From IMG/VR virus record IMGVR_UViG_3300021387_000308, positions 38,037 through 102,036 of that record: a stretch of 64,000 bases of DNA; one strand, written 5' to 3'. The position numbers and the translations under genes were made by a program. Positions within the stretch are counted from its first letter, which is position 1, and every line of letters starts with the position of its first letter. Origin of the DNA: a virus (Duplodnaviria; Heunggongvirae; Uroviricota; Caudoviricetes). The notes below the pieces were generated by a model that searched no databases, had not been told where the DNA came from, and saw only the letters and a program-made list of their open reading frames with translations. Positions 22,383 to 45,600 of the stretch are shown here, in pieces.

Positions 22383-22384
22383 TT

Positions 22385-24103: not shown

Positions 24104-24675
24104 GTGTTGGATTTTGCAAGACTGGAATTGTTAGTGCTAGTGGAGAAGATGTAAAAGAAAATATTTTAAAATATACTCCAAGAAGTATTTCTCAAACATC
24201 ATATTGTGGATATCAAGCAAATATGACGCAGAATCTTTCAGCTGGACAAACGTATACTGTATAGCTTTGGGATGTGGATGTTAGTCATTCTGGTAAAGAC
24301 GAAGCTAATGTTGGTATATGGATATATTGGGGCGGCGGATCGGTAAATTTATGTGCATGGGCTGGGCCATCTAATTTTACAAATGGACATGCAGACTATT
24401 TATATAAAACTTTTACGGTTTCAAGTACTCAAGCAAGTGGTTCTGGAGCAACAAATTCATATTTAAACTTTTATAATTCGGTTGGTTATGTTGCTGGGAC
24501 AATGTATATGAAAATAGGAAGATGGAAACTTGAAGTTGGAAGTATCCCAACACCTTGGTGTCTTAGTCCATAGGACACTCCATATATAGGATCAAATCAT
24601 GGTTTTATTGAGTCTGGAAATATGATGAGCATATACGAAAATTATATAAATACAAAGGAATTTATCGAATATTAA
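24100..24675 (+). CDS. hypothetical late protein (191 aa), 2 TAG(Gln); start overlaps the upstream stop (ATGA)
   Basis: ATG 24100, frame 1 through track ORF 24274..24573 to TAA 24673-24675. Confidence 0.55.
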
Positions 24676-24736
24676 AATTTTAAGGAGAGCTAGATCACTC
24701 TCCTGTGTAAGAAAGGAAGGTGATTTATAATAAATT

Positions 24737-26677
24737 ATGATTGCAAAAAATCTTTTAGTAAATGGCAGTTCTAGATTTTTAGGAGATATGTACGGGAATT
24801 TAGTTGGTACAATAAATAGCCATACTGTTGCTAAAGATGTACCATCTGATGCCAAATTTACGGATACAACTTACTCTGTTGTGTCAGCTGGAACGTCCAC
24901 AACTGCTGGTGGATTAATGAGTTAGTCAGATAAAACCAAACTAAATGGTATTGCTACTGGAGCGGAAGTTAATTAGAATGCTTTCTCGAATATATATATT
25001 GATGCTGGCAATGCAACATTACTTCCAGCGGGATCAAAAACAGATACATTTAGATTAAAGACTGGTGGTAATATTGCTTTTGAAGTTAATACTAGCCAAA
25101 ATCAAGTAACAATTTCTGCTGTTGATACTATTCCAAGTGCCTATTGCAATACTGCTAGTGGAACTGCCGCAAAGGTTGCAAGTTGTACTGGATATGTACT
25201 TAGACAGCATAATTATATTCAAGTTATAATGGTTAACGCAAATTCATATAATGGTGCTATTACATTAAATATTAATGGTACTGGAGCAAAAACTATTAGG
25301 ATTAATGGTTCTGATTCTTCATCATCAAATAAAACATTACCAGCTGGGTCTTATATGGTTTATTATAACGGTACATAGTATTGTTTTAATACGTCACTTA
25401 GTATGCCTGGATATATAGATTATGCAAAATATATTAACATGACATCTACTACAAATAAGATGTTTATTGGCGGTACGACAAGTAGTTCAAATAGTTATAA
25501 ATCATTGTATTTTAATCCTAATGTACATATAGAAAATTATACATTAAGTATAAATGATAATGTTATATTAGATGGGGATACTTGTGATATATAGCTTATA
25601 TCAAATAGTCTAAGTAATACATATTCAAATTTAAGCCCAAATCACTTTTATATTAATACTCAATCATATAGTGCAAATTATGCTGATACTGACATACTTA
25701 TGAATGAAATACTTAATTCTGTAGAAGTTAATCGTGTTAATATCAGTAGTATGACTGCTAGTATTTATCTTAATTATACTAGCCCTAAAATTGAGTTAAA
25801 TGCTACTGATAATCCAAGCATTACTTTAGAAGTACGTAATACTGGTGTTCATGGATTATACTCATCTGGTTATAATAATGGTAGTTCATTTGTATCAGAT
25901 CCTCGTTGGCTGATTCAAAGAACTGCTGGTTATGATAATAATTTAATAGAGGGCAATACTTATATAACAGGTAATTTAACAACACAAACTTCTACTGCTA
26001 GTATAGCAAATTATATGCGAATTTCACATAATGGATTTGGCGGAACAAGTATAGATATGGAAGTTTCAGCAAGTGGCATACCTGGAATTTATTCAGCTAG
26101 ATATTGGAATGGTAGTTCCGTAGTATACAACAGTGGTATTTGGATGATTTATCGTGATACTGATGGGTTGGTTAGAACTAGAAGTTGTTCTGGTACTAAC
26201 TCAACACCGCTTGTAAATACTTCTACAACAGATGGGAAAATGCTATCTGGATGTCATTGTAATACTTCTACTCAATTAGCATTATATGGTCAATGGGGAA
26301 CTACTGGAACAACGTATGCATATAGATATGTTACGGTAACCACATCTGATCCACGACTTAAAGAAAACATTGAACCGACTAAATTTAATGCTCTTGAATT
26401 GATTAATAAAATTAATCTTTACTCATTTGACTGGAAAAATGATGATACCCCGCATTATGATGTTGGTTATATAGCTACAGAATTATATGAATTGGATCAT
26501 AATCTTGCCATCAAACCAGAAGATGAATCCGAAGGTTATTGGGGAGTTAATGATTATTACATGTCTGGTGTTCAAACAAAAGCAATCCAAGAATTGTCAG
26601 CAGAAAATAATGAACTCAGAAACAAGATCACATCACTTGAAGCTAGGATAGCGTCATTAGAAGCGCTTATAAAATAA
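24737..26677 (+). CDS. tail fibre protein (646 aa) with C-terminal S74-type intramolecular chaperone domain (...TTSDPRLKENIEPTKFNALELINKINLYSFDWK...); 4 TAG(Gln)
   Basis: ATG 24737. Frame 2 continuous through track ORFs 25403..25594 and 25700..26677 (both gaps walked). TAA then a terminator. Confidence 0.7.
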
Positions 26678-26693
26678 TGTAACTTATTAACAT

Positions 26694-26724
26694 AGACGGT
26701 AGTAATACTGCCGTCTTTTTATTA
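26694..26724 (+). terminator. rho-independent terminator (AGACGGTAG-taata-CTGCCGTCT then ttttattat)
   Basis: 9-bp stem with one G-U pair, followed by a T tract. Confidence 0.6.
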
Positions 26725-26743
26725 TAGAAAGGAGATGTGACCA

Positions 26744-27238
26744 TTGTCTGATATTGTAAAATTTATTGACATGGATTGGAAAAATGGTGTCTTATTTATC
26801 GCCGCACTGGTCGTTGTTGCGGTATTTCTAATCCAAAAATGGGATTGGGTTATTTCAAGATTTGGCATTATTTCCAAGCGTAGGCTTGCATAGGAAAAGC
26901 TAGGAAAAGATGTCGATGAATTGAAAGACCATACTAAAAAAACAGACGAAAATATTGAAAAACTCATGGGAACGGTAAACGAAATGAAAGAATGTATTTA
27001 CGATCTATCTAATAAAGTTAATGATATGCAAAAGAAGAATGACGAAAATGAAGTTGCAAGAATAGGAGACAGATTAACACAGGCTTACAATTTTTATCGA
27101 AAACGTGGGTCGTGGACTAATATGGAGAAATGGGCTTTTGACAATATGGTAAAACAATATAAGTCTTCTGGCGGTGATTCATGGATTGATGAAGTTGCAG
27201 TGCCAGCAAGTAGAGGATGGGAAATTGTAGATGAATAA
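26744..27238 (+). CDS. membrane-anchored coiled-coil protein (about 164 aa; N-terminal TM GVLFIAALVVVAVFLIQKW), i-spanin-like or holin-associated; 1 TAG(Gln)
   Basis: RBS aaaggag 9 nt before TTG 26744 (alternative start ATG 26771). Frame 2 joins track ORF 26921..27238 through TAG 26891. Confidence 0.5.
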
Positions 27239-27254
27239 GGGAGGATAATATTAT

Positions 27255-28136
27255 ATGATATTAACTGCAAGAATTAATAATGAAGATGAATTTAGACTTG
27301 TTAGATTTGATTCACAGTCATTTATTTTAAATAGAGAATTATATATTCAAGGAACGGATTTTGGCGCTGTAAAAGAAGCTTGCCAAAACATTCAAACATT
27401 AGACATATACTCCGATGAAACTCTTATTTCATCGTATAAAAATTATGACACTTATGACAAAATCGCTTACCTCGGTACGGATTATGTACCAGGAGAAGAT
27501 AAGTTTGTGGATGTAATTATGGTCAGTTTGACGAAAGCAGACCTCATCGAGCAGGTAAAACGTCTCGATCAATAGTTAAATCCTACAATAGATTTTGATT
27601 CGATGTCACTTGAGCAATACAAGGACTACAAAATTAAAGAAATCCAGTCTGCTGTACAAGCTGATATCTTTGCTGGAAAGGAAGTAACTCTTTCTGATGG
27701 TAGTAAAGAATTCTTTGAATTCACACTGGAAGATCAAAGTAATATCGCAAACTTATATATGACAGTTATTTCTAGCAATGGTAAGATTACTGCTCTTCCA
27801 TTCCATAGCCATGGAAATTATTGTCGTGAATATTCTGTTGCTGATATTGTTCTGCTCTATATAGAAATGCAGAAATGTATTACTGAGAAAACTACTATTG
27901 CCAACTTCACAATTCAGAAAGCTCGTGAAGCGCTGACAAAAGAAGCCGTTGATGAAGTTTATTATGGTATGGAATTTGATACCGATACTGCTGATCAGAT
28001 TAATGCTATTCTTACGTCTACGCTTGCAACTATCAATGTAATGCTTCGTGAGTTAGGATTTATTACTGATGAAGAACCTAGCGATAATCTTAGTGAAGAG
28101 CCAGTAGTTCCAGATGAAACTGGTGAAGAGGAGTGA
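27255..28136 (+). CDS. hypothetical late protein (293 aa), acidic C-terminus; 1 TAG(Gln) joining track ORFs 27255..27575 and 27603..28136
   Basis: Both track ORFs are frame 3. Strong RBS gggagg only before 27255, none before 27603. Confidence 0.5.
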
Positions 28137-28142
28137 TGATTT

Positions 28143-28367
28143 ATGAAGAATATTAAAACTTCAAATGTTGTATTAATTGTAATAGCTATTGTATTAATTG
28201 TATTTACTACTGTATGTTTATATTTATTTGCAAAGATAGGCTCGGTTCCTGATTCACTTATTGGAGCCGTATTCGGTTCAGCATTGGGTGAGATGGGCTT
28301 TATGTCCTGGATACGTAACACAAAACAAAAGTATCGTGATGACGCACCACTTGAAGAGGAGGAATGA
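28143..28367 (+). CDS. holin-like small membrane protein (74 aa, TM VVLIVIAIVLIVFTTVCLYLFA, charged C-terminus)
   Basis: Track ORF. Stop overlaps the next start (ATGA). Confidence 0.55.
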   Translation: MKNIKTSNVVLIVIAIVLIVFTTVCLYLFAKIGSVPDSLIGAVFGSALGEMGFMSWIRNTKQKYRDDAPLEEEE

Positions 28368-28786
28368 TTATGACTGCTGCTACGTGGAATGATATTATGA
28401 GTGCTTGTATTCCGATTTTATGTCTGTTGATTACTGCTGGTGGAGCATATCTTGTTGCCCTGTTGAAGCGTGAAACAATGAAAATCGAAAAACAACTTGA
28501 TAACGAAATGATTAGTAAATATATTGAAATGGCAAATGATGCTGTCACTTAGGCAACTCTATATACTACTTAGGTATATGTTGAAACTCTGAAGAAACAA
28601 GGTGGATTTACTAAAGAAAAACAGATTGAAGCATTTAATATGAGTAAGCAAAAAGCTCTCGAAATTCTTGGTGACACTGCTATTAAAGCGCTGAATGAAA
28701 TTTATGGCGATCTAGATTCGTGGCTGAATACTAAGATCGAACAGGTTGTTTTTGAATCTAAAAATACTGTTGTAAAGGCAGAGTGA
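28364..28786 (+). CDS. membrane protein (140 aa; N-terminal TM then soluble helical domain), antiholin/spanin-like; 2 TAG(Gln)
   Basis: Track ORF 28364..28552 continues in frame 2 through TAGs 28550 and 28571 to TGA 28784-28786. Confidence 0.5.
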
Positions 28787-28790
28787 TTGT

Positions 28791-29210
28791 GTGAGTAAAT
28801 CGATTTTTAAATTTTTAGTATTATTTACATTCTTTGGAACTATCTATACTATTATAGAAACGATATTTAAATATCCTCGCTCTTCTCACTGGTCAATGTT
28901 TATCGTTGGTGGATTGATGGGATATTTTGTTGGGCTATTAAATAATGTAATCCCTTGGGAAATGTCGCTTATCTTATAGGCAATACTTGGCGGAATTGTT
29001 ATTACTATCACCGAGGGAATAGCTGGTATAATCCTTAATATTTGGCTAGGTTTAAATGTCTGGCATTATTCCTACATGACTTTCTTCTTTGGCTAGTGTA
29101 GTGTGCCATTTTGTATAGCATGGATATTTCTAGCACTAGTTGCAATAGTATTAGATGATTTCTTAAGATACTTTTTATTTGATGAGGAATGGCCTCATTA
29201 TAGATTATAA
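28791..29210 (+). CDS. 4-TM small membrane protein (139 aa); 2 TAG(Gln)
   Basis: GTG 28791 (track). Frame 3 through TAGs 28977 and 29094 to TAA 29208-29210 (end checked). Confidence 0.5.
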
Positions 29211-29215
29211 GTTTC

Positions 29216-29250
29216 TGGGCTACTATAGATAATATGGTAGCCCACTTTTA
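29216..29250 (+). terminator. possible terminator (TGGGCTAC-13 nt loop-GTAGCCCA then ctttta)
   Basis: 8-bp stem but a large loop and a weak T tract. Confidence 0.3.
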
Positions 29251-29268
29251 AATAAAGGAGGTGTTTTT

Positions 29269-29616
29269 GTGCTAACAATTCAGAAAACCAATATCTCTCT
29301 AACCCGTGGAGACTCTGCATATATTACTATGGTTATCTTTGATGGTTCTGGTAAGAAGCTTGAATTAACGAGTAATGACAAGGTACGATGCCAAGTAAGA
29401 GATGAGCCTGATACTGGTAACTTATTATTCGAGGGTCGAATTTTGAAATAGGATGATGACTATTTATGGTATATCAGACCAGAAGATACTATAGAACTTG
29501 ATACTGGTGATTATTATTGGGATGCACAAGTTGAATTCTCAAATGGAGATATTTTTTCATTTATTCCTGTTTCGAAATTTAAATTAATTAGTGAAGTAAC
29601 AATGGAGGAGGAATAA
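29269..29616 (+). CDS. hypothetical late protein (115 aa), 1 TAG(Gln)
   Basis: RBS aaaggagg then GTG 29269. Frame 1 through TAG 29449 to TAA 29614-29616. Confidence 0.5.
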
Positions 29617-29617
29617 T

Positions 29618-29947
29618 ATGGGTGCGAGTATACGTTAGAGCGGAAAGATTATAGCAAGTCTGTCCGATGCAAAACAAATCCGTGGTACTCTTATGGAAAC
29701 ATTCCTAAAGGGTGATCCTGGTGCATAGATACAATTACAGATTGCAAATGATTCTATCCTTCAATGGAAATATGATAATGAAACTGAATGGCATGATTTA
29801 TTTGATTTGTCAACTATAGATTATGAATTATTAACCAATCTCCCAACGCTCAATGGTAATGCGTTAGTTGGAGAATTGAATGATTTATTTATGTTACCAT
29901 CAGATGAGGTAACAGAATAGGAATTAATGAATTTATTAAATAATTAA
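29618..29947 (+). CDS. hypothetical late protein (109 aa), 3 TAG(Gln); paralog of the C-terminus of the 14345 gene
   Basis: ATG 29618 overlaps the upstream TAA. Frame 2 walk to TAA 29945-29947 checked. Shared motif ILQWKYDNETEWHDLFDL. Confidence 0.5.
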
Positions 29948-29963
29948 AGAAAGGAGGGAACAA

Positions 29964-31688
29964 ATGAAACCAAAATTTATTTCGTTGGAAAGATTTGCGA
30001 CATTTATAACGTGGTTAAAAGATGCTCTCCTCGGTAAAGTAGATAAAGAAGATGGTAAAGGATTGAGTGCCAACGATTTTACTGATTAGGATAAAAGTAA
30101 ATTAGATAATATCGAATCTGGTGCTCAAGTTAATTTAATTGAATCAATAAGTATTAATGGCGATGCGCAGACCATTAATCAGAAAAACGTGGATATTACT
30201 GTTCCTCTTGTTGATGACACTCTCACACATTCTGGGCAATCTGCTGATGCAAAAGTTACTGGTGATGCAATAGCTGATGTAGTAGCTGATGTAAATGCGG
30301 AACTTGCTACTAAACAGGACACTCTCTCGTTCGCAACTCCTACAGCCGAAGATGTTGGTAAAGCATTGATGCCTAAAACGGTAGAGAATGGTGTTGTTAC
30401 AGCTTGGGAATTTGGAGAAGCTGGATTGGTTGATGATGTCCAAATTAATGGCACGAGTATCGTGTAGGATAAGGTGGCGAATATACCACTGGCTAAGGAT
30501 GGTGTTGTTGGTGCAGTAAAAGTAGTTCCTATATTTGGTATAGCAACAGCTAACGATGGAACATTGTTAATAAACAATTCAACGTCAGATGTTGTAAAAT
30601 TAGGTGACAATAGTAATAGACCAATAACTCCAAATTATCAACATGAATCAACTTTCTATGGTCTTGCCAAAGTTGCGGGACACGATGAGAAGGATTCTAC
30701 ATTGCCTGTTGGTCAATACACCGATTCTGCAAAATCCGCCATTCAATCAATGTTAGGAATTGATACTGCTATCGCTGATGCTGTTGGTGATATAACCAGT
30801 TTTGAGTTTTAGGTTGTTGATGAGCTTCCAGCTACTGGGACTAAGGGTATTATTTATCTAATCCCACATCCACATGATGATAATGATGGATATGATGAAT
30901 ATATCTGGATTGATGATGGATTTGAGAAACTTGGGCATACTGATATTGATTTGAGTAATTATGCCACTATTAATTATGTTGATAGTGCATTGGATAATAA
31001 AATTGATGATGTTCAAATAGATGGGACAAGTATTGTAACTAATGGTGTAGCTGAAATACCTATTGCTAATATCAATACATTTGGAGTTCAAAAAGTAAAT
31101 GGGGCATATGGTATTGCGTCATCAGTTAATGGGACAACTTTATCCATAAATAGATCAACCACAGATAATGTAAAAAAGGGGAAAGAAACTTATAAACCTA
31201 TTGTTCCATCAAATCAACATGAAGCAGTATTCTACGGGTTAACAAAAGCTGCGGGAGTCGATATGGCTAATTCTGCTAATGAAATCGGTCAATACACGAA
31301 TGATGCAAAATTAGCAATCAAATCAATGCTTGGATTTGCTACATCTTCTGATATATCAGCGGCTATAGATAATCTTGTTAGTACTAGATATTATGTATGT
31401 TAGGATGGCGAATATGATCCATCAACTCACATTCCCACACTTGACGGTGAATTGGGAATTATTTATTTGGTACCGAAATATACTGAGCAATCAATAATCG
31501 GTTTTGCTACTATTGGAACTGCTATCGTTGTCACAGCAGATGATAATGCATATTATGAATATATCTTTACTGGAAGTAAGTTCGAGAAAATTGGTGATAC
31601 TAAAATTGATTTAAGTGATTATCTGATGGATTCTGATATAGCAACCGATGATTCTGTGAATACAATGTTGAATTAGGTATTTGTATAA
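29964..31688 (+). CDS. fibre protein (574 aa) with an internal duplicated module (...NGTSIV...PNYQHE..FYGL.K.AG...GQYT..AK.AI.SMLG...); 6 TAG(Gln)
   Basis: RBS aaaggaggg then ATG 29964. Track ORFs 30189..30467, 30474..30812, 30951..31403, 31452..31676 are all frame 3. TAA 31686-31688. Confidence 0.65.
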
Positions 31689-31701
31689 AAGGAGGAATAA
31701 C

Positions 31702-32418
31702 ATGAGTTATGTGAAAAATGTTTGGAGTGATGGAGATGTTATCACTGCAAATAAGATGAACAATATTGAAAATGGTATAGCTACGTTGCAAACCGACATG
31801 GGTAATATAACTGCTGAACCTATGATATCTATTACATGGGCAGAACTTAAGGCTAAACGTGATGACGGAAACCTTACGCCAGGTATGCAGTATCGCATTA
31901 CCGACTATGTTTGCACTACAACGCAGGAAGAAACTAGAGCAGTTAGTCATCCTTACGACATTATCGTAACAGCTGATAGTGCTAATACGCTTAACGAAAG
32001 CGCTATGGCTTGCTTGCATGATGGCGATGACTATTACACCGCCGAAGATCATTCCGCTAATCTTAAGGCTTGGGAACTTAAGTACTGTCTGGATAATGAT
32101 ACGACTAGATTTGCCTGGGCAGATGAGACAAACGGTAAGGGCGTTGTCTACTATCTTAAGGATGAGAAAGGTAACGAATGCCCTTACGATTTCAAACAGA
32201 TCCAGTTTAAGAGATACCTTATTACAGAATGCGAGAAAGTTCCTAGCTTGGTTAGCACCGCTGCTACGGCACTAATAGATTCTGCTATCATCACCGGGAT
32301 AGATGAAGATAACCCGGCTTGGTGCTATACGTTTACTAAATTTACAGGACCTGGCACAGTAGAAGATGCAACAGTATTAGGGTCACAGCATGAAGATAGC
32401 GACGGAGGTGGATATTAA
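31702..32418 (+). CDS. fibre module X (238 aa), no TAG; its core recurs fused inside the next gene
   Basis: RBS aaaaggagg then ATG 31702 (the track's 31681 start is an upstream TTG). TAA overlaps the next ATG (TAATGA). Confidence 0.6.
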   Translation: MSYVKNVWSDGDVITANKMNNIENGIATLQTDMGNITAEPMISITWAELKAKRDDGNLTPGMQYRITDYVCTTTQEETRAVSHPYDIIVTADSANTLNESAMACLHDGDDYYTAEDHSANLKAWELKYCLDNDTTRFAWADETNGKGVVYYLKDEKGNECPYDFKQIQFKRYLITECEKVPSLVSTAATALIDSAIITGIDEDNPAWCYTFTKFTGPGTVEDATVLGSQHEDSDGGGY

Positions 32419-34592
32419 TGAATGTACTTGGAAATAAAATAGCATATGCATCCTATCAAGATCAACAGATTCTTAATAATATAGTTTTTTTGGTAGTAAA
32501 CATTGGATGCTCTAATAACACCTTTGGTAATAACTGCTCTAAAAACACCTTTGGCGATGGCTGCTCTGAAAACACCTTTGGAAATGACTGCCGGAACAAC
32601 AACTTTGGCGATAACTGCAAGAACAACACCTTTGGTAATAGCTGCTACGACAACGTCTTTGACATCAACTGCTCTGAAAACACCTTTGGCAATGACTGCT
32701 ACAGCAACGCCTTTGTCAATAGCTGCTCTAAAAACACTTTTGACGATAATTGCACCGGCAACGCATTTGGCCGTGCATGCCTTGGCAACACCTTTGACAA
32801 TAGCTGCCAGGACAACACCTTTGGCGATAACTGCAAGAACAACACCTTTGGTAATAGCTGCGAAAATAACACCTTTGGCATTAGCTGCCAGAGCAATGCA
32901 TTTGGCGATAATTGCACCGGCAACGCATTTGGCGATAACTGCCAGAACAACACCTTTGGCAATGATTGCGCCGACAACACCTTTGGCGATAACTGCCAGA
33001 ACAACACCTTTGGCAATAGCTGTTATAGCAATACCTTTGATCATTGCTACGCTAATGTCTTAGAATTCAATTGCGGTTATCTTAAAGGCATGTATGACGA
33101 AACCGAAGGCACAACGGCACATTCATATCATGTGCTGCAATCAACTCATGGTACATCTGTTGAAGAATTATATGAACTCCCGACTAAGCCAGATACAGTT
33201 CTATCAGTCACTTACGTTGGAATGGACAGTAGCGGAAATATTACAACGTGGATCCTTGCCGAAGTTAACAATGGTGGTAGCGGTGGATCAGCTACACCAA
33301 TGGAATCCATTACATGGTCTGAACTTAAAGTAAAACGTGATGGTGGAACTCTTACACCTGGCATGTAGTATCGAATCACAGACTATGTCTGTACCACTAC
33401 GTAGGCAGAGTCTAGAGCTGTCAGCCATCCTTATGATATTATTGTGACAGCTGATAAAGTTAATGTGCTCAACGAAAATGCTAGGGCTTGTCTTCACGAT
33501 GGTGATGACTATTACACTGCTGAGGGACATTCTGCTAATTTAGCTGTTTGGGAGCTTAAGTACTGCCTGGATAACGACGAAACTAGGTTTGGATGGGCAG
33601 ACACCGAAAACGGTAAGGGCGTTGTTTACTATCTTAAGGATGAACATAATAACGAGTGTCCTTACGATTTTAAGCAGATTCAGTTTAAACGGTATAGGAT
33701 TACTGAATGCGAGAAAGTTCCTAGCATTGTTGGAGCCTATACGGCACCAATAGAATCTACTGTTATCACCGGAATAGATGAAAATAACCCAGTTTGGGGC
33801 TACACATTTTGTTATTATGGAAATAATCTAGACGATGCAACGGTATTAGATGCACAGCATTATTTAGATGACTGCGGAGTATTTGGAAATAAAATAGCGC
33901 CGGCGTACAATGGCGATCTAATGGTTCTTAATAATATAGTTTTTATAACTATCACCGACGGCTGCTACGGTAACACCTTTGACGAAGGGTGCGGTTACAA
34001 TACCTTTAGCATTACATGTTGTAACAACGCATTTGGCTATAACTGTCATAGCAACATCTTTAATGCTGGTTGCACCAGAAACGCATTCAACAATTCTTGT
34101 GTCGGGAATATTTTTAGTACTAGGTTCAAAGAAAATACTTTTGGCAATGAATGCCATGATAACATCTTTGGCAATGAATGCCATGATAACATCTTTGGTA
34201 ATGACTGCCATGATAACATCTTTGGTAATGACTGCTCTAACAACATATTCGGTAATAACAGTTATAGTAACACATTTAGTAATAACTGCTATAATAACAC
34301 CTTGGGCAATTCCTGCCCGTTCAATTCCTTTGGTAGCAATTGCCATAATAATATTTTAGAAAACACATGCGGTTATCTTAAAGGTACATATGATGAAACC
34401 AACGGCACATCAACACATTCGTGTCATGCATTAGCCGGAACTAGAGGACTGCCTGATCGATTATATGAGCTTCCGACTAACCTAGATTCAAATAAATCAG
34501 TCACTTACGTTGGGATGAAAAGCAACGGAAATATTATAACGTGGGTGCCGGCCGATGTTCATGATGATCCAGATGAGGGTGGGCTACGGTGA
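32418..34592 (+). CDS. beta-helix-type fibre protein (724 aa): 9-residue repeat array - tail - copy of module X - second repeat array - tail; 2 TAG(Gln)
   Basis: Track ORFs 32418..33368 and 33444..34592 are both frame 3 and joined through TAG 33366 and TAG 33402. Both TAGs align to CAG codons (31888, 31924) in the upstream paralog. Confidence 0.7.
32508..33057 (+). repeat. about 20 tandem 27-nt coding repeats (peptide C-x-x-N-T-F-G-x-x)
   Basis: Periodic NTFGDNC / NTFGNSC units in the translated ORF. The same units on the antisense strand create spurious ORFs. Confidence 0.7.
33963..34371 (+). repeat. second array of about 15 27-nt coding repeats (C-H-D-N-I-F-G-N-E type)
   Basis: Same 9-residue periodicity in the second half of the gene. 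Confidence 0.65.
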
Positions 34593-34738
34593 TGATTCTT
34601 TTGAGGATTAAATTATGGGAGTAACTTATAATCGTGGTGTCAGCTGATACTATACCACATAGAATTTATAAAAAATAATACTATTGAGTGATAATTATGT
34701 AATTAAAATTATTAAACATGAAATGAGGTGATGAAATA

Positions 34739-34972
34739 ATGGCAATTACGACATTAGACCAACTCAAGACATCTCTTTAGGCAACTAAAGTTTATATAGA
34801 TAATACTATTAATAGTGCAACTTAGAGAGGTACCTATACTCTCACTGCCACTGATAAAGAAGAAATTGCTGGAATGGTTTTACCAATATTACCATCAGTT
34901 GATGGTTCATATATATTAACAGTAACTATTAGTAATGGCAATCCTACATATGCGTGGCAATTACAAAGTTGA
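34739..34972 (+). CDS. hypothetical small late protein (77 aa), 2 TAG(Gln)
   Basis: RBS gaggtg then ATG 34739. Frame 2 walk to TGA 34970-34972 checked. Confidence 0.45.
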
Positions 34973-34996
34973 TATTAATTTAAGGAAAAATTTATT

Positions 34997-35191
34997 ATGA
35001 CACAATATTATATTGTAGAAATTAAGGTTAATGGAGAATTCGAACATCAGGTTCACTGAGCAAGTGCTACGTTGCTTACTTCTGATGGTCGCGCTATTAT
35101 GAATCAGTGCTATAGACATGAGATCGAGGAGGTAACTCCAGAAGTTGAGCCTACTCTAGAAGAAGATCACGTGGTTGAGCCTACTGAGTAA
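34997..35191 (+). other. small ORF with an in-frame TGA (35057-35059) separating two coding-like halves; possible readthrough/recoding or two tiny genes
   Basis: ATG 34997 ... CAC TGA GCA ... TAA 35189-35191, all in frame 2 (walk checked). The second half is GC-richer and acidic. Confidence 0.25.
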
Positions 35192-35212
35192 TGTAAATTA
35201 AATAATTTTTTT

Positions 35213-35245
35213 GGCTACTGTCTTATGATAGTAGCTTTTATTATT
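35213..35245 (+). terminator. terminator-like hairpin (GGCTACT-10 nt loop-AGTAGCT then tttattatt)
   Basis: 7-bp stem, T-rich tail. Confidence 0.35.
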
Positions 35246-35250
35246 GTGAG

Positions 35251-36933
35251 GTGAAAATTATGTCCGTAACAATAAATAATTTGGCTAAAAAAGCATGGAA
35301 GGTTTTTCTAAAAGAAGGGATGACAAAACAAGGAGCAGCTGGAATGCTGGGTAATATTTTTGCAGAAAGTGGAATGAATGCTTCTATTGTTGAATACCTA
35401 TGTCTTCAACGGCTTAGAGAAAATGGCAAAAATTATACTCAAGAATCATATAGATAGGCTGTTGACAATGGTAAAATTACGAGAGCAGAATTTTTAAATC
35501 CATTGCCAGGCAAATAGTATGGTTGGGGATGGACTTAGTTAACAACTCCTGTTCCACGAAAATCAGAGTTCTATGATAGAACAGTTGCCGTTGGTAAATC
35601 AATAGCTGATGAAGATGAGCAAATTAATTACACTATTTATGAACTTAAAACAAGATATAAAAGTGTGTGGAAAGTACTTACAACCACAACTTCTATTAAA
35701 ACTGCTTCTGATACTGTATTGAGAGATTTTGAATCACCAAGTAATTGGTAGCAATATAGTTCATTGAGAATGCAGTATTCTTAGGAGTATTATGATTATT
35801 TTAATAATCAAGCTACAGGCACGAAAGGAAGTGATGTTGTGTCAGTAACTAGAGAACAAGCAATTAATGCGATGATATCTACCGCAGAAGCTGAGATCGG
35901 ATATCTTGAGAAAGCTAGTAATTCTTAGCTTGATTCTAAGACGGCTAATGCTGGTAGTAATAACTATACTAAATATTGGAGAGATGTATATCCCGCATAT
36001 CAAGCCCAAGCGTGGTGCGCTTGTTTCGTATCTTGGGTGTTTATGAAAACATTTGGATAGGAAACTGCCAAAAAGCTTCTTAAACACTGGCCTTATGTTT
36101 ACTGCCCAACTATGGCATCATTGTTTACGCTTAATGCTAATCCGAAGAAAGGTGATATTGTAATCTTTTATCGCAATGGCACATTTGCTCATACTGGGAT
36201 TGTTGTTGGTGTAAATGGAGATTAGTTTACTACTATTGAGGGTAATACCTCGAATGGTTCTACTATTATTGCAAATGGTGGCGGAGTATGCAAAAAGAGT
36301 TATTACAACTCAAATCTGCCAGGTACTAAATTCTGTACTCCAGATTACTCAATAGTAACCAAGATTCTCTCTGGTAATACTACTATCAATACTACTACAA
36401 CCACTACTTCTACTACCACTACTACAACTACCTCTTCTACTTTGAATGAAACTCCAAAGTGGAAAGGTAAATTAAATCGTAATGCAAAAGTTCGTACTTG
36501 GGCTGGATCAGAAAATAAAGAAGTATCGTTTTCTCCACTCAAGAAAAATATCCAAGTAGAAGTGTGTGATACTGTTAAAGATACAAAGAATCGTAATTGG
36601 TATTATATCAAAGTAAATGATAAATTTGGTTTTATATATAGTAAATATATAGATAAAGTTGTTGCTAATACAACTAAACCAACTAAAACTACAACCGCCA
36701 AAACCACTACTACGCAATATCGTGTTCAAGCTGGAGCATACTCGGTACTTGCCAATGCAAATGCTACTGTAAAGACTCTGACCAAATCTGGGTATGATGC
36801 TGTGGTAGTCAAGAGCGGAAATAGTTATATTGCATAGCTTGGAATGTTTGGTTCACTAGCTAATGCAAATGCACTTAGAGATAAAGTTAAATCTGACGGT
36901 TTCGATGCCGTTGTTATTGCTATAAAATCATGA
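35251..36933 (+). CDS. multidomain peptidoglycan hydrolase (560 aa): N-terminal lysozyme-like domain (AAGMLGNIFAESG), CHAP/NlpC-P60 domain (AWCACFVSW ... HTGIVVGV), SH3b-like domain, C-terminal SPOR domain; about 9 TAG(Gln)
   Basis: GTG 35251 or ATG 35260. Frame 1 continuous through track ORFs 35251..35457 and 36442..36837 to TGA 36931-36933. Cys and His catalytic motifs of CHAP recognised; SPOR motif YRVQAGAYSVLANANATVKTL. Confidence 0.65.
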
Positions 36934-36950
36934 TGAGGAGATAAAAAGGA

Positions 36951-38102
36951 ATGAACGTTTATTTAGATAATGCTGCAACTACACAGATGTTGCCAGAAGT
37001 AATTGATGCTATGAAGTCATATATGATTGAATACTATGGAAATCCATCTGGATTATATACGATTGGATTTAAAACAAAAAATATGCTTGATGATTGTCGC
37101 AAAACTATTGCACAGACTATCAATGTATAGCCTAACCAGATTTATTTCACATCTGGTGGAACTGAGGGAGATAATTGGATTATTAAAGGTGTTGCTGAAG
37201 CGCTGGAAACAAGAGGTCATCATATTATTACTTCTTCTATTGAACACAAAGCAATTCTTAAATCTTGTGAATGGCTTGAAGATCATGGATTTGAAGTAAC
37301 ATATATTGACCCAGATGATCGCGGTTTTATCCATGTATCTGATATTGAAAGTGCCATCCGTGAAGATACTATTCTTGTTAGCATTATGTATGCTAATAAT
37401 GAAGTTGGTACTATACAGCCAATTGAAGAGATTGCTAAAGTATGTAAAAATTATCATGTGTTGTTCCATACAGATGCAGTTCAAGCATATGGTCATGTTC
37501 CAATCAACGCTCGGAAATTTGGTATTGATTTCATGACAACAAGTAGTCACAAATTCCATGGCCCAGACGGTGTAGGATTTGTCTATATTCGTAACCCAAA
37601 AACTATTTCTCAATTTATCCACGGTGGACAACAAGAATCTGGATTCCGCGCTGGAACAGAAAATATGTTGGGTATTGTTGGAATGGCAAAAGCTGCGGAG
37701 ATTGCACATAAAAATCTACAAACTAATATTAATTATATGACATCACTCAGAGATGTGTTTATTGATGAGTGTTTAAATAATATACCAAAGTGTCACCTGA
37801 ACGGTTCTCTCATAAGTAGACTGTGTAATAATATCAGTTTAACATTTGATGGTGTTCCCGGCGAATCTTTGGTAACAATGTTGGATATGATGGGAATAAG
37901 TTGTTCTACTGGAAGTGCTTGTAATTCTTCCGATGAAAAACCATCACATGTTTTAACTGCCATGGGTAGGACTGATGAGTATGCCCATAATACACTCAGA
38001 TTTACTCTTTCTGAGTTGACAACGGCAGATGAGATAGATTATGTTCTTCAATGTTTAAAACGCACTATTTCTGATATTAGGAGGTTATATGGGCAAAAGT
38101 AA
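36951..38102 (+). CDS. class V aminotransferase / cysteine desulfurase (NifS/IscS-like, 383 aa) with 1 TAG(Gln) at 37128
   Basis: RBS aaaaagga then ATG 36951. Frame 3 walk through TAG 37128-37130 to track ORF 37386..38102 checked. PLP-lysine motif SSHKFHGP, active-site Cys motif GSACNS, FTSGGTE motif. Confidence 0.75.
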
Positions 38103-38603: not shown

Positions 38604-39914
38604 CTAAGCTAGGGATGATTTTACCATCTTTTTTTCGGCGCTTTCCATGTAAAATTTTTTCTTATCAAAATTTTGAATGTCGTATGTGTAATGAAGATCA
38701 TTGACCCTTGGAGTGTTACCAATTAGGCTTCCAGCTTCAGTAGCAGATACACCATCAAATCTTAGATAAGAATTAAATGTCCTTCTGATAGCATGAATAC
38801 TTTTGTGTGAATCGAATTTGATCTGCTCACATTTATGATTCATGTATGCAGTAAGGTTTTTACATCTCAGCTTTTGACCGTCAAAAGAAAAAACAAAGTC
38901 ACCCTCTTGACCATATTCGCGCTGTAAATCCCGCATCTTATTCAGAAAGGTATTGATCTCTTCCGTAATAGGAATCGTTCTTGTCTTACCAGTCTTTGTT
39001 TTGGATTGCTCGTAAGTTTTATTGACTACATCATATTTCTCAGATTCACATACTATTATATGGTCGTTGAGAACGTATTTCCAACGAAGTCCAGCAATCT
39101 CACCGCATCTCATTCCAGTGAGTAGTGCAAATTGAACTCCATAAGGATAAATGTAATCTTTCTTGCGCAAGATGTCGGAATTTATTTTGTTGATCAGGAT
39201 AGTCAATTCTTCTTGAGAAAGAGTACGTTCTTCAATAGTTTTTTCATCCGTGTTGTAGAACTTCACGAACTTCTTCTTATCAACAAACTGACACGGGTTA
39301 TCTTGCGGTGGAATAACCTTATCTATAACAGCATTGTAAAATACACCACTGATATAAGAATATAATCCATCTGCTCCTCTCCGCTTAAGATTGAACTTTT
39401 TTATGTTGTTTATCATAAATAGTTCAATATCTTTTGAAGTAATCGATGATAAGTCTGCTCTAGCGAACGGAGTACCGTCAAAAAACCGAAACCAGTCTGT
39501 CTCATAGCGTCTTATACTGTTGTTGGATTTGCCGTATTCTTTCTGCATCTCCATCCACTTGTCATGACCTTTGGAAAAAGTATATGTTTTATCCTCTGGT
39601 TCTTCTTCCCCAGTATAAAAGCGCACTATTAAATCTTCTAACTCTTTCAGAGTTTTCTTACTCTTTTGAACTATCTTGCCATCAACATTAAATCTTGTTA
39701 ACCACCTGTCTTTCTTCTCGTTGTACTTTGGTTCGTATGGATGTTGTAACAGTATACGTTTACGTTTCTCCATCTCGATCAACTCACGTATACATTGCAA
39801 GTCCATATTACCACTTTCTTCAATACTTTTCAATGCTGCATCTAATTCGTTAATATTATTAGGGGTAACCTCTTCGGCTACCCCATTTTTTACCATTTTT
39901 CTACTCATAGGCAT
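38604..39914 (-). CDS. tyrosine recombinase / phage integrase (436 aa), TAG stop
   Basis: Track ORF. Catalytic motifs LLTGMRCGEI (Arg), HAIRRTF (His-x-x-Arg), C-terminal Tyr in LHYTYD. The stop is TAG at 38604-38606. Confidence 0.8.
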   Translation of the reverse strand: MPMSRKMVKNGVAEEVTPNNINELDAALKSIEESGNMDLQCIRELIEMEKRKRILLQHPYEPKYNEKKDRWLTRFNVDGKIVQKSKKTLKELEDLIVRFYTGEEEPEDKTYTFSKGHDKWMEMQKEYGKSNNSIRRYETDWFRFFDGTPFARADLSSITSKDIELFMINNIKKFNLKRRGADGLYSYISGVFYNAVIDKVIPPQDNPCQFVDKKKFVKFYNTDEKTIEERTLSQEELTILINKINSDILRKKDYIYPYGVQFALLTGMRCGEIAGLRWKYVLNDHIIVCESEKYDVVNKTYEQSKTKTGKTRTIPITEEINTFLNKMRDLQREYGQEGDFVFSFDGQKLRCKNLTAYMNHKCEQIKFDSHKSIHAIRRTFNSYLRFDGVSATEAGSLIGNTPRVNDLHYTYDIQNFDKKKFYMESAEKKMVKSSLA

Positions 39915-40186
39915 TACCCAATCATAAATGCAATGAGTTTGTTTACATCGTCCTGATTGTAGGCAATAATCTCAAGTTCTGGGATTTCTCCACCACCAGA
40001 AAAAATATTTGCCAGACTAAAATACTGTGTAAGTTTTGATTTTAAGTTCAGACGAAGATCTTCGCCAACAAGTTCAATCTTACCAGTACAGCTATCAATA
40101 ACTTCAAAAAATTTTTCAATATCATTAATATGATTAATCTTCATTATTCGTTTCTCCTTCTTTATTTTCATCCATAATATTTCCAA
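39914..40186 (-). CDS. hypothetical early protein (90 aa)
   Basis: Track ORF abutting the integrase. Confidence 0.4.
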   Translation of the reverse strand: MEILWMKIKKEKRIMKINHINDIEKFFEVIDSCTGKIELVGEDLRLNLKSKLTQYFSLANIFSGGGEIPELEIIAYNQDDVNKLIAFMIG

Positions 40187-41147
40187 TATCTGTAATCACT
40201 GTCCCAGATCCTGATACAACTGGAAGTTTGCCATCCCACTTAGCAATCTTTTCGTTTTCAATAAGTTCTGGTGTAAGAGATTCTGCAATTAATTTATTTG
40301 CCTCAGCCTGTGCTTGTGCTTTCACACGAATAGCTTCTGCTTCACCCTCAGCTTTAATACGAATCTGTTCAGCTTTGGATTCCGCACTAATCTTTTTAGC
40401 ATCAGCTTCCGCTTGTGCTTTAATGCGAGACTGTTCTGCTTCTGCCTCAACTTGAATCGTTGTCTGCTTATTTGTATATTCAGCAGTTTCAGCAGCAAGT
40501 TTAGCCTGAGCTTTCTTCTCAATGGCACTGTTATAAGCGTCTGAGAAATTAATATTTCCGATTGTCACAGATACAATATTAACAATCTGATTTTTATATT
40601 TTGTATTTAGTGAATTCTGAATACATTCTTTAGCAACTTTTTCAATCTTGGATCGATCAGTTACATCTGTATCATTAAACTGTTTAGTTGCTGCTTTAAT
40701 TCCAGACTCGATAGATGTTGCTTTAATAAGATTAGTATCCCATTCCTCAACATTTGTCCAAATCCATGCTGCATACTCCGCATTGATCTGATAGTCAATT
40801 GCAATATTTTCACAGTACAATTCTGTACGTTCGTTTGTTTCAGACCAAATCTGACCAGAATAGATAATCTCCTGCTGTTTGCAGTTAATGTTATTAATTT
40901 TTTCAACAAACGGAATCTTCCAGTTAAGTCCACTCTGAGTCGGCTTGTCAGAAATCTGTCCATACATTGTTCTCACACCTACATACCCAGACGGTACAAA
41001 GCTAAAAGAGCATCCAAATAGAATTGCTATAAGCCCAACAATTGAAATAAAAATTGGCGCAACTTTTTTTATACTAATCATTAATGCCACGCCACCAACA
41101 GTAAAAATAAAACCACCAATAAGCAAAATCGCTTTAATACTATTCAT
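40134..41147 (-). CDS. SPFH/band-7 (prohibitin/HflK-like) membrane protein (337 aa)
   Basis: N-terminal TM segments, GYVGVRTMYGQI and FSDAYNSAIEKKAQAKLAAETAEY motifs, long Ala/Glu/Lys-rich coiled coil. Confidence 0.65.
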   Translation of the reverse strand: MNSIKAILLIGGFIFTVGGVALMISIKKVAPIFISIVGLIAILFGCSFSFVPSGYVGVRTMYGQISDKPTQSGLNWKIPFVEKINNINCKQQEIIYSGQIWSETNERTELYCENIAIDYQINAEYAAWIWTNVEEWDTNLIKATSIESGIKAATKQFNDTDVTDRSKIEKVAKECIQNSLNTKYKNQIVNIVSVTIGNINFSDAYNSAIEKKAQAKLAAETAEYTNKQTTIQVEAEAEQSRIKAQAEADAKKISAESKAEQIRIKAEGEAEAIRVKAQAQAEANKLIAESLTPELIENEKIAKWDGKLPVVSGSGTVITDIGNIMDENKEGETNNED

Positions 41148-41307
41148 CTAAAATCTCCTCGTTATAAATTGATGTAATTCCAATCATCATTCCACAATCG
41201 AAACATTCATAATAATCGTGGTGAGTTGGGTTCTCATCATCAGGAAACGGTTCACTGATAAGTTCCATAATCCCACCACAATATGGACATAATATTTTCT
41301 TACCCAT
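41140..41307 (-). CDS. small zinc-ribbon protein (55 aa, CPYCGG ... CFDCG), TAG stop
   Basis: ATG overlaps the dUTPase stop (TAATG). Four-Cys motif. Too short for the track. Confidence 0.4.
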   Translation of the reverse strand: MGKKILCPYCGGIMELISEPFPDDENPTHHDYYECFDCGMMIGITSIYNEEILDE

Positions 41308-41747
41308 TAGGTAACCCCTGTAGAGCCAAATCCACCACGGTTGGGGTTATCAAGATTATCTACTTCATTGAAGTGGATTATTGGCTGTTTCTTAACAATT
41401 CTAAACTGGCAGATTCTGTCACCTCTATAGATGGTAGTCTTCCTCATAGCTAATGCTGGGAACCTCCACCAATCATCATTGCCACAATAACTGTGATCTA
41501 TTACACCAAAATGGTTGGTTTGGATAATACCGAATTTTTTAAAAGTACTACTTCTAGGTACGATGTGCGCTTCGTATCCTTCAGGTAATTCCATAGCAAC
41601 ACCGAGATTAATAATTCTGAAGTCACCTGGCAGCATCGTTACAGTTTCAGCTGACCTCAAATCAATCCAATCGCTCTTTTCCCCATCGATATACTCAAGT
41701 TTCGGCATATCCTTGTCAATATACTTAATCTTAATTGTCTCACTCAT
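41307..41747 (-). CDS. dut: dUTP diphosphatase (trimeric dUTPase)
   Basis: Motifs [18 protein letters not shown]. Confidence 0.85.
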
Positions 41748-42090
41748 TCTTATTATCTTCCTTTAATATATTATTTCTAATTAATCTATCAATTATTTCG
41801 TTATATACTTTAACAGTTTTTTCATACACAGAATTGTTGTATCTCACATCTGGATCATAAAATGGTGGATAACAACATCCATCCTCACATACTATGCTAT
41901 ACATAACTATTGGTATATTACTTTCAAAATAAATAATCATTTTAAAGGTTACATAAGGATTCTTGGTATTATCATAGCAATATAAATATCTTTTATAAAA
42001 ATATTCTCCACCATATCTTACAAATCCAGATTTCAATAACTGATCCTGTGATACTTTACTATTAACTTTAAATTTTTTAGGTTCAATCAT
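41740..42090 (-). CDS. hypothetical early protein (116 aa)
   Basis: Track ORF, abuts dut. Confidence 0.45.
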
Positions 42091-42310
42091 TCTTTATCTT
42101 CACCTTATCTTCGCAAGGTATACACGCTCCCCAGATATACCATTTATCACGTACTGAACAATAAACCATGATCTTAGCTTTGTTAGATTCATTAAGTATT
42201 GATTTGGCACAATCTTCACAATCTTTTCCAGCTATAATCATTCCCATTCCTCATCTTCATCATCATCGGTATCATCACCATAGCATCCATACTCTTCGTC
42301 TTCTGGATCA

Positions 42311-42637
42311 TTAGGTTTCTTCGAGAATATAAATATGATTCTTCTTTCCAACGATTTCATATCTTCCTTTCGTAGCATTTAAATATTCGTCATCGGTAAA
42401 TAATACTTCGAATCTATATTTTTCAGTAGAAATCTCTCTGGGTGTCTGAGAGAGGATACCAACCAAACACCCAGTGATTAATAAACTTATTACTACATAC
42501 TGCAATTCTAAATCCGTGTAATAGAAACACTTCATACAAACTACAGCAAATACTACTATTGATAATAATGTCAGAAATAAGATTATGGAAAAGAAGATAT
42601 TAGATTTCATTACTGGATATCTATTTAATATTTCCAT
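42311..42637 (-). CDS. small membrane protein (108 aa, 2 TM)
   Basis: Track ORF, hydrophobic segments. Confidence 0.45.
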   Translation of the reverse strand: MEILNRYPVMKSNIFFSIILFLTLLSIVVFAVVCMKCFYYTDLELQYVVISLLITGCLVGILSQTPREISTEKYRFEVLFTDDEYLNATKGRYEIVGKKNHIYILEET

Positions 42638-42646
42638 AATTACTCC

Positions 42647-45600
42647 TTAACTGCAATGACTAAATCCACAATCTTTGCATGTACTACAGCCACCCTCGAA
42701 TATAAGTTCTCCACCGCATTCTGGACAAATCGCTTTTGTTTTTTGTTTAGGAACTTTTACAACATCATTATTTACAGTTGCTTCTACAACTTTAGTAGGA
42801 GTGATCACATACTCATCGTCTTCATCAAAGATATCATCTTGGATTTCACGATACATATCAATTAATGCATTTGCAATCGCTACTGGGCAACTATTACCTT
42901 TTGATGTATCATGCTTGGTCGCTGTTCTTACAGTATAAGACGGACAAGCTGGAACGCTCATAAGCTGGTCAGCAATAGAATTAATATCAACTCCACCTCT
43001 TGCAGATAATGAAATCAATCTTGAGATTGCTGTAAGGTTACAAAGGCATCCTCCGCTACTACCCTTATTTAAGAAGCATTCTAATAAATCACCAGTATCT
43101 GGATCAAAAAATGCAGAACAATGTAGAGAACCGCAGCCAGTCACTAAATGTCTTTCTTTACCAACGGAATTATTATCAACCTTAATAATCATTCCTCTTT
43201 CTAATTTCTGAGGAATATGTTTTACCTCTTCTTCTGAGTGATCGATTGTTAAAATTCCTGCACGTTTACATCCATCACGGAAGATTGTTACACCTTTAAG
43301 GCCAGCTTCCCACGCTTTCATATAAAGGTCTTCTACTTCTTCAATAGTAAAGCTATTTGGTACATTAACCGTTGAAGAAATACTAGCATCAATATGTTTC
43401 TGCCAGATTGCTTGCATTTTAATGCGTTCTTTATAATCAAGTGTTTGTGCTGTCACAAAGAAATCGGGTAATTCAGAATCGTCATCAATATTGTTTTCAT
43501 CCATATATTTTTTTACAATCGGAGTATAAACTTTATAATACTCATCATGTCCATGAAGCGACTCTGTTTTTCTTGTATAGTAATTTGCAAAAATTGGTTC
43601 GATACCACCAGACACTCCAAGCATCGTAGAAAGTGTTCCAGTTGGGGCAATAGTAAGTAGCTGCGAGTTAGCAAGTCCACAAGAAACATCTGTATCACCA
43701 ACATGCTCACTAAAGAATGCAGATTGAGCAACTGCCTCTGGATGATACTTAGGATAATGACCAATTACTTTTGCAAGTTCAGCAGATGTCTTAATAGCTT
43801 GATATGCCATCTTCTGACCAATCATGTCGCACAGATGGATAGATTCATCACTACCATAACGAACACCCATTTTAATCAACATATCTGCCAAGCCAAAGAT
43901 TCCTAATCCACACTGTCTCCAATCTCTAACAGATTCTCTCTGTTCTTTGAGAGGATGAAGTGGAATACCCTCATCAAGAACTTCATTCAATGCTTTAATG
44001 GCAATATCTACTGTATTTGAAAAATCTTCAAAATCAAAAAGCTTATCTTTAGTTACAAATTCTGAAAGATTGATGGAGCCGAGCAAACACGACCCACCGG
44101 GCGGAAGCGGTTCTTCTGCACAATTATGAACAACAAAACCATTTACAACTCCCCAATGTCTTTCAGGTTCTGTAAAATCATATACTTTTATCTTACCATT
44201 TGGTACTACACTAGTAACTTGCATAGCACGTTTTTTAATCATATTACACAGCTGCTCTCTCTTATACTGCTGATAAAAGCCAATGCAAGCCATAAATTTA
44301 ATAATTTCTTGATATCTTCCAATATTGATATCATAACTTTCGCGGATTTCATAAGTCCCATTTTCAAATTCAATCTTGTGTGGTTTATTTGTTGTAATAT
44401 ATGCATTGCAGATATCAAAATCTTCTTTTAATGTAGAAACTAATTTTTCCGCAAAAGCCTTACATGTGGTTTTATATGAAATTCTTCCACCTTTGTGTGT
44501 ATCATTCTTTTTTATAACACATCCATTTGCGGAATAACAGCCACATAAAAAACTTGATTTTTCTAATCTAGTCCATGTATCGTATGTAGAAGGAAATTCT
44601 CTGTCTGGCAAAATATTAGGAGAAAACCCTAACTTAACTAATTCTGGTTGATAATTTGCTAAATAAATTGCACGTTCTGATTTTTTCGTAAATTCTTCAT
44701 CGGAAAACAAATCCCAGATATCGGTATCTTTCTCTCCAATATTAACTTCGATTCCATCATGATATTTACTATTTAATCTAGTAGTTTGCCCATCACCCTG
44801 AATAAATCCAAGCTTAATAAAATGATTATCAAGATTATGGTTTGAACGAGTTAATGGCATTATATATTTACCAGTTAAATTCTCAGCACGACATTCTTCT
44901 CCATCTAAAGTCATAAATCTATGATCTGGAGTACAAATTACTTCTGTGTTATAGAATTTTACTTTAACAGTATCTTTTTCTCCGTTGCACCATACTTTAC
45001 TTTTTACAACGTTCCCATCAACATTAATAATATAAGGTTCAGTACCGTCAAGCTCTTCAAACGTTTTATATCCATCAACTGTAAGAAGTTTCGAATCTCC
45101 AGAAAAACATGGGTTTACTCCACCATATTTAAATTCAGGATCGCAACTAAGAAGATTCCAATTTTCTATTCTATCCCAGAAAAGCATTCCAGGTTCGGCC
45201 CAATCCCAATTAGACTCACAGATTTTATGAAATAATTCATAAGCATCAACTGTTTTAGTAATCGTTTCTCCAGTTTCTACTCTTGTAAAACTAAGTTCAA
45301 ATGGTTCACGATTTTTTACAGCTGCCATAAATCTATCAGTAATACGAATACTAATATTAGCTTTTGTAACCCTATCAGTATTTTGCTTAATTCCAATAAA
45401 TTCTTCAATGTCTGGATGGTCAACGGGGATTGATATCATCAAAGCTCCTCGTCTTCCCGCTTGCCCAATCAAACCAGTAACCATAGAATACAAATCCATA
45501 AAACTTACTGATCCAGATGTTTCTTTAGCGGCATTATGGACTATAGCGCCTCTGGGTGCAAGTTTACCAATATCAATGCCACATCCACCACCATAAGAAT

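Follow-up and report, generated by a model that had tools for sequence, protein, structure and literature searches.

How is a gene to be read when TAG triplets cross its open frame, and what can a second copy of the same domain say about them? The question is raised by a 64,000-nucleotide (nt) stretch of a tailed virus of the Caudoviricetes (IMG/VR record IMGVR_UViG_3300021387_000308, positions 38,037 to 102,036; the whole of this stretch is called the window below), in which two neighbouring genes, here gene A and gene B, share a duplicated domain, and in which gene B has TAG at two codons where gene A has CAG. An earlier note, made from the letters of the sequence, had proposed that this internal paralogue alignment pins the recoded TAG to glutamine (Gln, Q). 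From the sequence comparisons set out below, we consider it very probable (about 0.93) that the window belongs to a gut phage of about 200 kb that reads TAG as Gln (genetic code 15) in its late genes and uses the standard code in its early, replication and integrase genes, decoding being most likely due to a phage tRNA with the anticodon CUA, tRNA(CUA). Recoding of TAG to Gln in late genes is already established, and this is another phage that shows it.

A paralogous gene pair with TAG opposite CAG

Gene A (31702..32418, plus strand; 238 amino acids (aa), AGGAGG ribosome-binding site, TAA stop, no in-frame TAG) is the sister copy with CAG, and gene B (32418..34592, plus strand; 724 codons, TGA stop) follows it directly, its ATG overlapping the TAA of gene A as TAATG. 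The duplicated domain occupies residues 37-236 of gene A (window 31810-32409) and residues 290-487 of gene B (33285..33878, plus strand). The two in-frame TAGs of gene B that are read here as Gln, at 33366..33368 and 33402..33404 (both plus strand), pair with CAG at 31888-31890 and CAG at 31924-31926 of gene A, each by one C/T change, just as the earlier note had described. Local protein alignment with BLOSUM62 joins 197 codons of the two genes (score 772), 92 of them identical, 55 with synonymous and 50 with non-synonymous differences. The ratio of non-synonymous to synonymous substitution rates (dN/dS, Nei-Gojobori) comes to 0.15 for the whole alignment and to 0.19 for the part beyond the second TAG, which argues that this part is translated, and the 11 codons separating the two TAGs specify the same amino acids as in gene A. 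The alignment is genuine, and purifying selection has acted on both sides of the TAGs. The wording of the earlier note needs correction in places: the segment 31873-31977 translates as it was quoted there, but its counterpart LTPGM begins at 33351 and not at 33352, and the copies had been called near-identical, which holds for 31 of the 35 residues in the quoted segment and is overstated for the domain as a whole, where amino-acid identity is 75%.

The five Gln columns of the alignment comprise two CAG/TAG and three CAG/CAG pairs and, with 5 Gln in about 200 aligned residues of gene A, the chance of both TAGs hitting Gln is about (5/200)^2 = 6e-4. The assignment to Gln is supported by this result, but two aligned codons alone would not pin it. 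Paralogue comparison works only for this one recent duplication, because the other internal paralogue pairs of the window (about 30% identical) are too diverged, the residues at TAG being essentially random there, with one Gln in 24 such pairs. The history of the pair would have been a tandem duplication of a tail-fibre-like domain followed by synonymous CAG-to-TAG transitions in gene B, gene A still having CAG because the transitions came after the duplication, and the TAGs at 33366 and 33402 would be ordinary Gln codons of late-gene code 15.

In gene A, an N-terminus like a tail-fibre motif, as judged by eye only, precedes the domain that is duplicated in gene B. Gene B runs from Cys-rich 9-residue repeats through a C-terminal domain and a GGSGGS linker to the copy of the gene A domain with both TAGs, and from there through another repeat block to a further C-terminal domain. 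The repeat, N-x-F-G-N-x-C-x-N with a 27-nt period, forms long beta-helix-like runs at window 32500-33040 and 33950-34420, and neither these runs nor gene A and gene B themselves match a Pfam or PHROGs family. The junction between domain and repeat block is broken by the TAATG between genes A and B (window 32410-32425) and unbroken inside gene B (33860-33885), and in a relative, L001 (1030-1035), the second of these junctions is the broken one; since the break lies at differing copies in the window and in L001, the tail-fibre genes here are suggested to be modular and chain-like. In the public protein collection, gene A is present as P0121, and record P0235 is the exact 724-aa product of gene B, with both TAGs given as Q.

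A recoded late arm beside a standard-code early arm

The window consists of two arms that meet near 38,100, in agreement with the GC skew. The TAG-recoded late module (88..38102, plus strand), which comprises tail fibres, a holin, an endolysin and a NifS-like enzyme, has 25 open reading frames (ORFs) and 11,966 codons, with 104 in-frame TAGs spread over 24 of the 25 ORFs and no in-frame TAA or TGA; the early and replication block in the standard code (38604..63959, minus strand) has 50 ORFs and 6,880 codons without a single in-frame TAG. Stops are distributed accordingly: TAA 16, TGA 9 and TAG 0 in the late arm, TAA 30, TGA 15 and TAG 5 in the early arm. Reading TAG as sense lengthens the longest ORF from 3,288 to 8,703 nt, and strong Shine-Dalgarno sites are found at most of the 25 late ORFs. 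Of the 365 putative Gln codons in the late arm 104 are TAG, and the share of Gln there rises from 2.2% to 3.1% of codons when TAG is counted, compared with 2.4% in the early arm. Two of the marks by which code 15 is recognized are therefore seen here, namely many TAGs in intact conserved genes (the 104 TAGs, the Pfam domains that span them and the dN/dS of 0.15-0.19) and the complete absence of TAG as terminator from the recoded genes.

The first gene of the early arm encodes a tyrosine integrase (38604..39914, minus strand; phrog_1, E = 4e-42), whose orthologue in L001 has a Phage_integrase Pfam match. It contains no in-frame TAG and itself ends at TAG, and can therefore be expressed in the standard code of the host. 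The five early ORFs with a TAG stop, on the minus strand with ends near 38604, 51577, 52459, 55529 and 57965, would be extended once a suppressor is active; the integrase has 436 aa to its TAG in the window and is called as 451 aa in L001.

The phage is a tailed member of a lineage of about 200 kb from the human gut, with a host that is probably of Lachnospiraceae type, in the Bacillota. Over its first 13,618 nt, the part that was compared, the window shows 100% identity with scaffold_261 of ENA ERZ28612940, a human-gut contig of 118,309 bp, and a contig of 203,101 bp is a relative with about 94% nucleotide identity over the region compared (via L001). Relatives of the endolysin are found in genomes of Blautia, Lachnospiraceae and other Clostridia.

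The amino acid at TAG

Since TAG is already rendered as Q in the public collection, evidence from close database homologues (P0235, and L001, which did not translate to the query) would have been circular; their recorded proteins were excluded, and DNA was read at the codon level. The endolysin (35260..36933, plus strand; Phage_lysozyme2, CHAP and SPOR domains), whose Pfam domains run across its TAGs (nine in frame), provided an independent test gene, for which 80 bacterial-genome loci were read at eight TAG positions. CAA or CAG stands at position 86 in 20 of 21 loci, and Gln accounts for 22 of 31 residues at position 93 (the other nine being tyrosine), for 25 of 30 at position 175 and, as a plurality, for 28 of 70 at position 223, while the four remaining positions are variable; the totals over all eight are Gln 106 of 354, lysine 50 and tyrosine 25. 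In the family of the duplicated domain, Gln is present in 45 of 67 homologues at the position of 33366 and in 51 of 68 at that of 33402 (70 homologues in all), and a member of this family, P0134 (NCBI), translates exactly under code 11.

Relatives of the phage also point to Gln. In L001, with about 80% nucleotide identity in gene B, TAG stands at both positions and the frame is open, so that both codons are old and have been kept, rather than having arisen as recent nonsense mutations; at other sites, TAGs of the window pair in L001 with TAG 13 times, with CAG twice and with TCG and TAT once each. A tally across the clade, in which the recoded late genes of a close relative, L170 (IMGVR_UViG_3300021387_001020), were compared with 78 IMG/VR loci, has Gln as the plurality residue at 14 of 32 TAG columns, followed by lysine at 4, and of the roughly 2,000 codons other than TAG at these columns, 1,024 are CAA or CAG. 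Read in the reverse direction, TAG occurs in some relative at 28 of 62 Gln columns (45%), compared with at most 5% of the columns of every other residue (tyrosine 0.8%, serine 0.5%, leucine 0.5%, tryptophan 0%). The third mark of code 15, Gln at TAG positions in homologues with standard codons, is thus seen as well, Gln being top in each test and the others at background, and the extension to database homologues that the earlier note had outlined leads to Gln again in the endolysin, in the domain family and in the clade tally. At the level of sequence evolution, these comparisons show TAG to be translated and synonymous with CAA and CAG.

Decoding of TAG

Decoding would most likely depend on a phage-encoded amber suppressor tRNA(CUA) that is charged with Gln by a host enzyme. 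In L170, ARAGORN with introns allowed finds at 15936-16235 a tRNA(CUA) gene with an insert of 212 nt, the only tRNA(CUA) seen in this relative; it is located within the late module, at the place homologous to that in sister phages, and default tRNA finders overlook it because the intron interrupts the gene. The 5' exon terminates in ...GCAGU-CUCU, the 3' exon begins with AAA-ACUGU..., and the expected ligated junction joins ...GCAGUCUCU to AAAACUGU.... After splicing, the 88-nt tRNA folds into a cloverleaf with the loop CUCUAAA, A1-U72, G2-C71, G10 and G73. The insert matches the Rfam family Intron_gpI from end to end with 28 bits (E = 2e-5), short of the curated threshold of 50; U is the last base of the 5' exon and G that of the intron, and the 31-nt core motif of the intron recurs in 50 metagenome loci, almost without exception within tRNA-Leu(UAA/CAA) genes. 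The intron resembles the group I introns known from bacterial tRNA-Leu(UAA) in its core motif and its U/G exon-intron ends, and differs from them in that the host gene is an amber suppressor and that the insertion follows position 35, not 34, as placed by sequence. Intron-less orthologues of 92 nt with a long variable arm are found in the late modules of two sister phages, L169 (6805-6896) and L133 (16000-16091), and a third, L131, has a tRNA(CUA) of standard length (75 nt) where the early and late arms meet. The variable region has 20 nt in L170 and 20-22 nt across L169, L133 and L170. JGI metagenomes searched for exact copies of the suppressor 5' exon gave no match.

Among the elements on which the glutaminyl-tRNA synthetase of Escherichia coli relies are G73, a weak 1:72 pair, G2:C71 and U35, and a serine amber suppressor was reportedly turned to Gln acceptance by changes in the acceptor stem, in work by Rogers and Soll in PNAS in 1988. 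We infer that the suppressor is charged with Gln by the host enzyme and that it acts in the genome of the window itself, where, by collinearity, it would be located near 116 kb of scaffold_261. For the lineage as a whole we lean slightly towards a suppressor that is an atypical tRNA(CUA): its variable arm would be long and its acceptor end Gln-like (G73, weak 1:72, G2:C71), and its gene, located in the recoded late module, would be interrupted by a self-splicing group I intron akin to those of tRNA-Leu; in the closest relative that could be followed outward, the sole tRNA(CUA) would have such a group-I-type intron. Recoding may serve to delay the late and lysis proteins.

Several observations weigh against this account of a phage that reads TAG as Gln by its own tRNA. 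Neither a tRNA nor an Rfam family at gathering score occurs in the window, and with default settings none turned up in a further 110 kb or so from this genome or a near-identical one; default ARAGORN and Rfam scans of the loci L001, L082-86 and L091-94 gave no tRNA, and the suppressor is seen only in relatives, outside the window. Its variable region of 20 nt is like that of bacterial leucine, serine and tyrosine tRNAs, and for this reason the sequence of the suppressor does not by itself say Gln. Several TAG positions are in variable columns, where homologues show alanine, lysine, glycine or serine, or tyrosine, and Gln at TAG is deduced here from DNA.

The alternative that fares best is that TAG is read without a phage suppressor, for example by a near-cognate host tRNA-Gln after the phage has interfered with release factor 1. 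It has in its favour that the window and the 110 kb first scanned are free of tRNA, and that published surveys find TAG suppressors in just about 40% of TAG-recoded genomes. We nevertheless regard it as improbable: a tRNA(CUA) appears in the close relative once introns are allowed and is also present in sister phages, and 104 TAGs in essential genes would need efficient decoding.

Less probable again is a sense codon for another residue, such as tyrosine, serine or leucine, with pyrrolysine as a further candidate. The 20-22-nt variable regions of the tRNA(CUA) in L169, L133 and L170 would suit one of the first three, and tyrosine is found at endolysin TAG positions 93 (9 of 31) and 322 (12 of 70), one window TAG is opposite TAT and one opposite TCG in L001, and the anticodon arm of the tRNA(CUA) presumably resembles that of E. 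coli tRNA-Tyr. However, TAG exchanges with Gln columns about ten times as much as with those of any other residue in the clade tally, by which the reading as tyrosine, serine or leucine that the long variable arm had prompted was ruled out and tryptophan is excluded as well, and Gln dominates the conserved columns of standard-code homologues. The discriminator here is G73, and leucine and tyrosine tRNAs use A73. Pyrrolysine, a candidate because ARAGORN labels CUA as Pyl, was rejected on the conserved Gln of the TAG columns and on the 20-nt variable region, which is unlike that of tRNA-Pyl; pyl genes were not searched for genome-wide.

That the TAGs are true stops, with the second domain copy decaying or with separate standard-code genes at 32418..33368 and 33444..34592, is hardly credible, since, although CAG-to-TAG is a common single transition and code 11 divides the region into two ORFs, one of 316 aa and one of 382 aa that starts at GTG, the amino acids encoded from one TAG to the next (11 codons) match those of gene A, dN/dS downstream is 0.19, L001 retains both TAGs and the open frame at about 20% nucleotide divergence, and 104 in-frame TAGs in 24 of 25 late ORFs, some crossed by Pfam domains, are accompanied by no in-frame TAA or TGA.

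Other unusual tRNA genes occur in the lineage. In a 203-kb relative, L095 (2646-2918), a long-variable-arm tRNA with a 190-nt intron, mislabelled Phe(gaa) by ARAGORN, is best read as tRNA-Leu(UAA) with a classical group I intron, and it adjoins tRNA-Ser(UGA) and tRNA-Ser(GCU). L096 contains two tRNA-like genes (5107-5224 and 5298-5418) with intact acceptor, D and T arms and about 46 extra nt, both sharing the hairpin GTATC-N7-GATAC followed by TAACAGCAA, and near them a tRNA-like gene with a 13-nt insert (8407-8494) and a 'tRNA-Lys' with an abnormal anticodon loop (8836-8906). The two L096 genes with about 46 extra nt and the odd 'tRNA-Lys' were considered as suppressors and rejected, no CUA anticodon being derivable from them. 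In the early arm of the relative genome, a CUA anticodon is absent from a tRNA cluster (Ile, 'Lys', Ser, Ser), from the tRNA-Leu(UAA)-like gene with the 190-nt intron and from the two tRNA-like genes.

Comparison with known recoded phages

In gut phages, TAG-to-Gln recoding limited to late and lysis genes, TAG-free integrases and suppressor tRNAs have been described (bioRxiv 10.1101/2021.08.26.457843; PMC7886860; PMC10607447), proteomics has proved TAG to be Q in crAss-like phages (PMC9523058), and the argument from TAG at conserved Gln positions has been used earlier (PMC10607447). With the code 15 gut phages (crAss-like, Lak and the 'gemstone' clades of Borges et al.) the present lineage shares a low GC content (31-42%), in-frame TAG only in structural and lysis genes, early genes and an integrase without in-frame TAG, TAG opposite Gln in homologues and a phage tRNA(CUA) in the lineage. 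It differs from them in that its host is probably one of the Lachnospiraceae and not of the Bacteroidota, as the Shine-Dalgarno sites and the relatives of the endolysin indicate, and in that the suppressor of the close relative has an intron and a long variable arm. A limited search of the literature on recoded phages found no mention of intron-containing or long-variable-arm suppressor tRNAs, which does not prove their novelty.

The Jade, Sapphire and Agate clades are recoded phages of about 150-210 kb, part of which infect Firmicutes (bioRxiv 10.1101/2021.08.26.457843). Compared by size and recoding pattern alone, they resemble the present lineage in a genome near 200 kb, a gut origin and recoded late genes, whereas several scattered recoded modules have been described for them and one contiguous arm is seen here. 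The Phassvirus group (phAss-1, 136 kb; PMC10607447) is likewise human-gut and siphovirus-like, with a presumed Clostridia host and TAG in late ORFs; in phAss-1, however, three tRNA-Sup(CTA) genes are readily detected and the tape measure has 3,149 aa, compared with a product called at 7,650 aa here. This unusually large product, called in public annotation just upstream of the window (L082 1-4634), has a PhageMin_Tail (tape-measure) match. INPHARED gave no megablast match to window 24000-38000, and MT835469 (176 kb), considered as a relative, proved to be unrelated and not TAG-recoded, tblastn with an endolysin relative giving only domain-level matches.

For annotation, TAG must be translated as Gln here, as otherwise the genes for tail fibres, holin and endolysin look fragmented. 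The window adds a large, integrase-bearing phage of a Bacillota host to the phages whose late and lysis genes cannot be translated before the phage has its own means of decoding in place. As a check of a codon, the internal paralogue pair is neat and complete in itself, but it leaves existing knowledge unchanged; the intron-split suppressor of the relative may be newer and may matter more. If it proves true, intron-split suppressors could explain part of the approximately 60% of TAG-recoded phages in which no suppressor tRNA has been detected, and splicing could act as a further timing control on the change of code.

Other genes of the window and its relatives

The late arm also includes a holin gene (28364..28786, plus strand; phrog_13712, E = 2e-52) with two in-frame TAGs, a 2,895-aa ORF (3666-12353, plus strand) with 21 in-frame TAGs, and fibre proteins of the Peptidase_S74 type. 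Its last gene (36951-38102, plus strand; one TAG) encodes a NifS/IscS-like class-V aminotransferase of the cysteine desulfurase type, an unusual cargo adjoining the endolysin.

In the early arm, the large subunit of ribonucleotide reductase (42647-45898, minus strand) is a single ORF of 1,083 aa with about 985 nt more than in L001, where an insert of some 1.1 kb with an HNH gene divides the reductase gene (17431-20781) into two parts. The two inserts look like different mobile elements, intein-like in the window and intron-like in L001. Past the right end of the window, the relative L091 has a TnpB/Cas12f-like gene pair (Cas12f1-like_TNB; 2998-4474) among early genes, its neighbours being an NAD-dependent ligase, thymidylate synthase, the PolIII alpha subunit, DnaB and DnaG.

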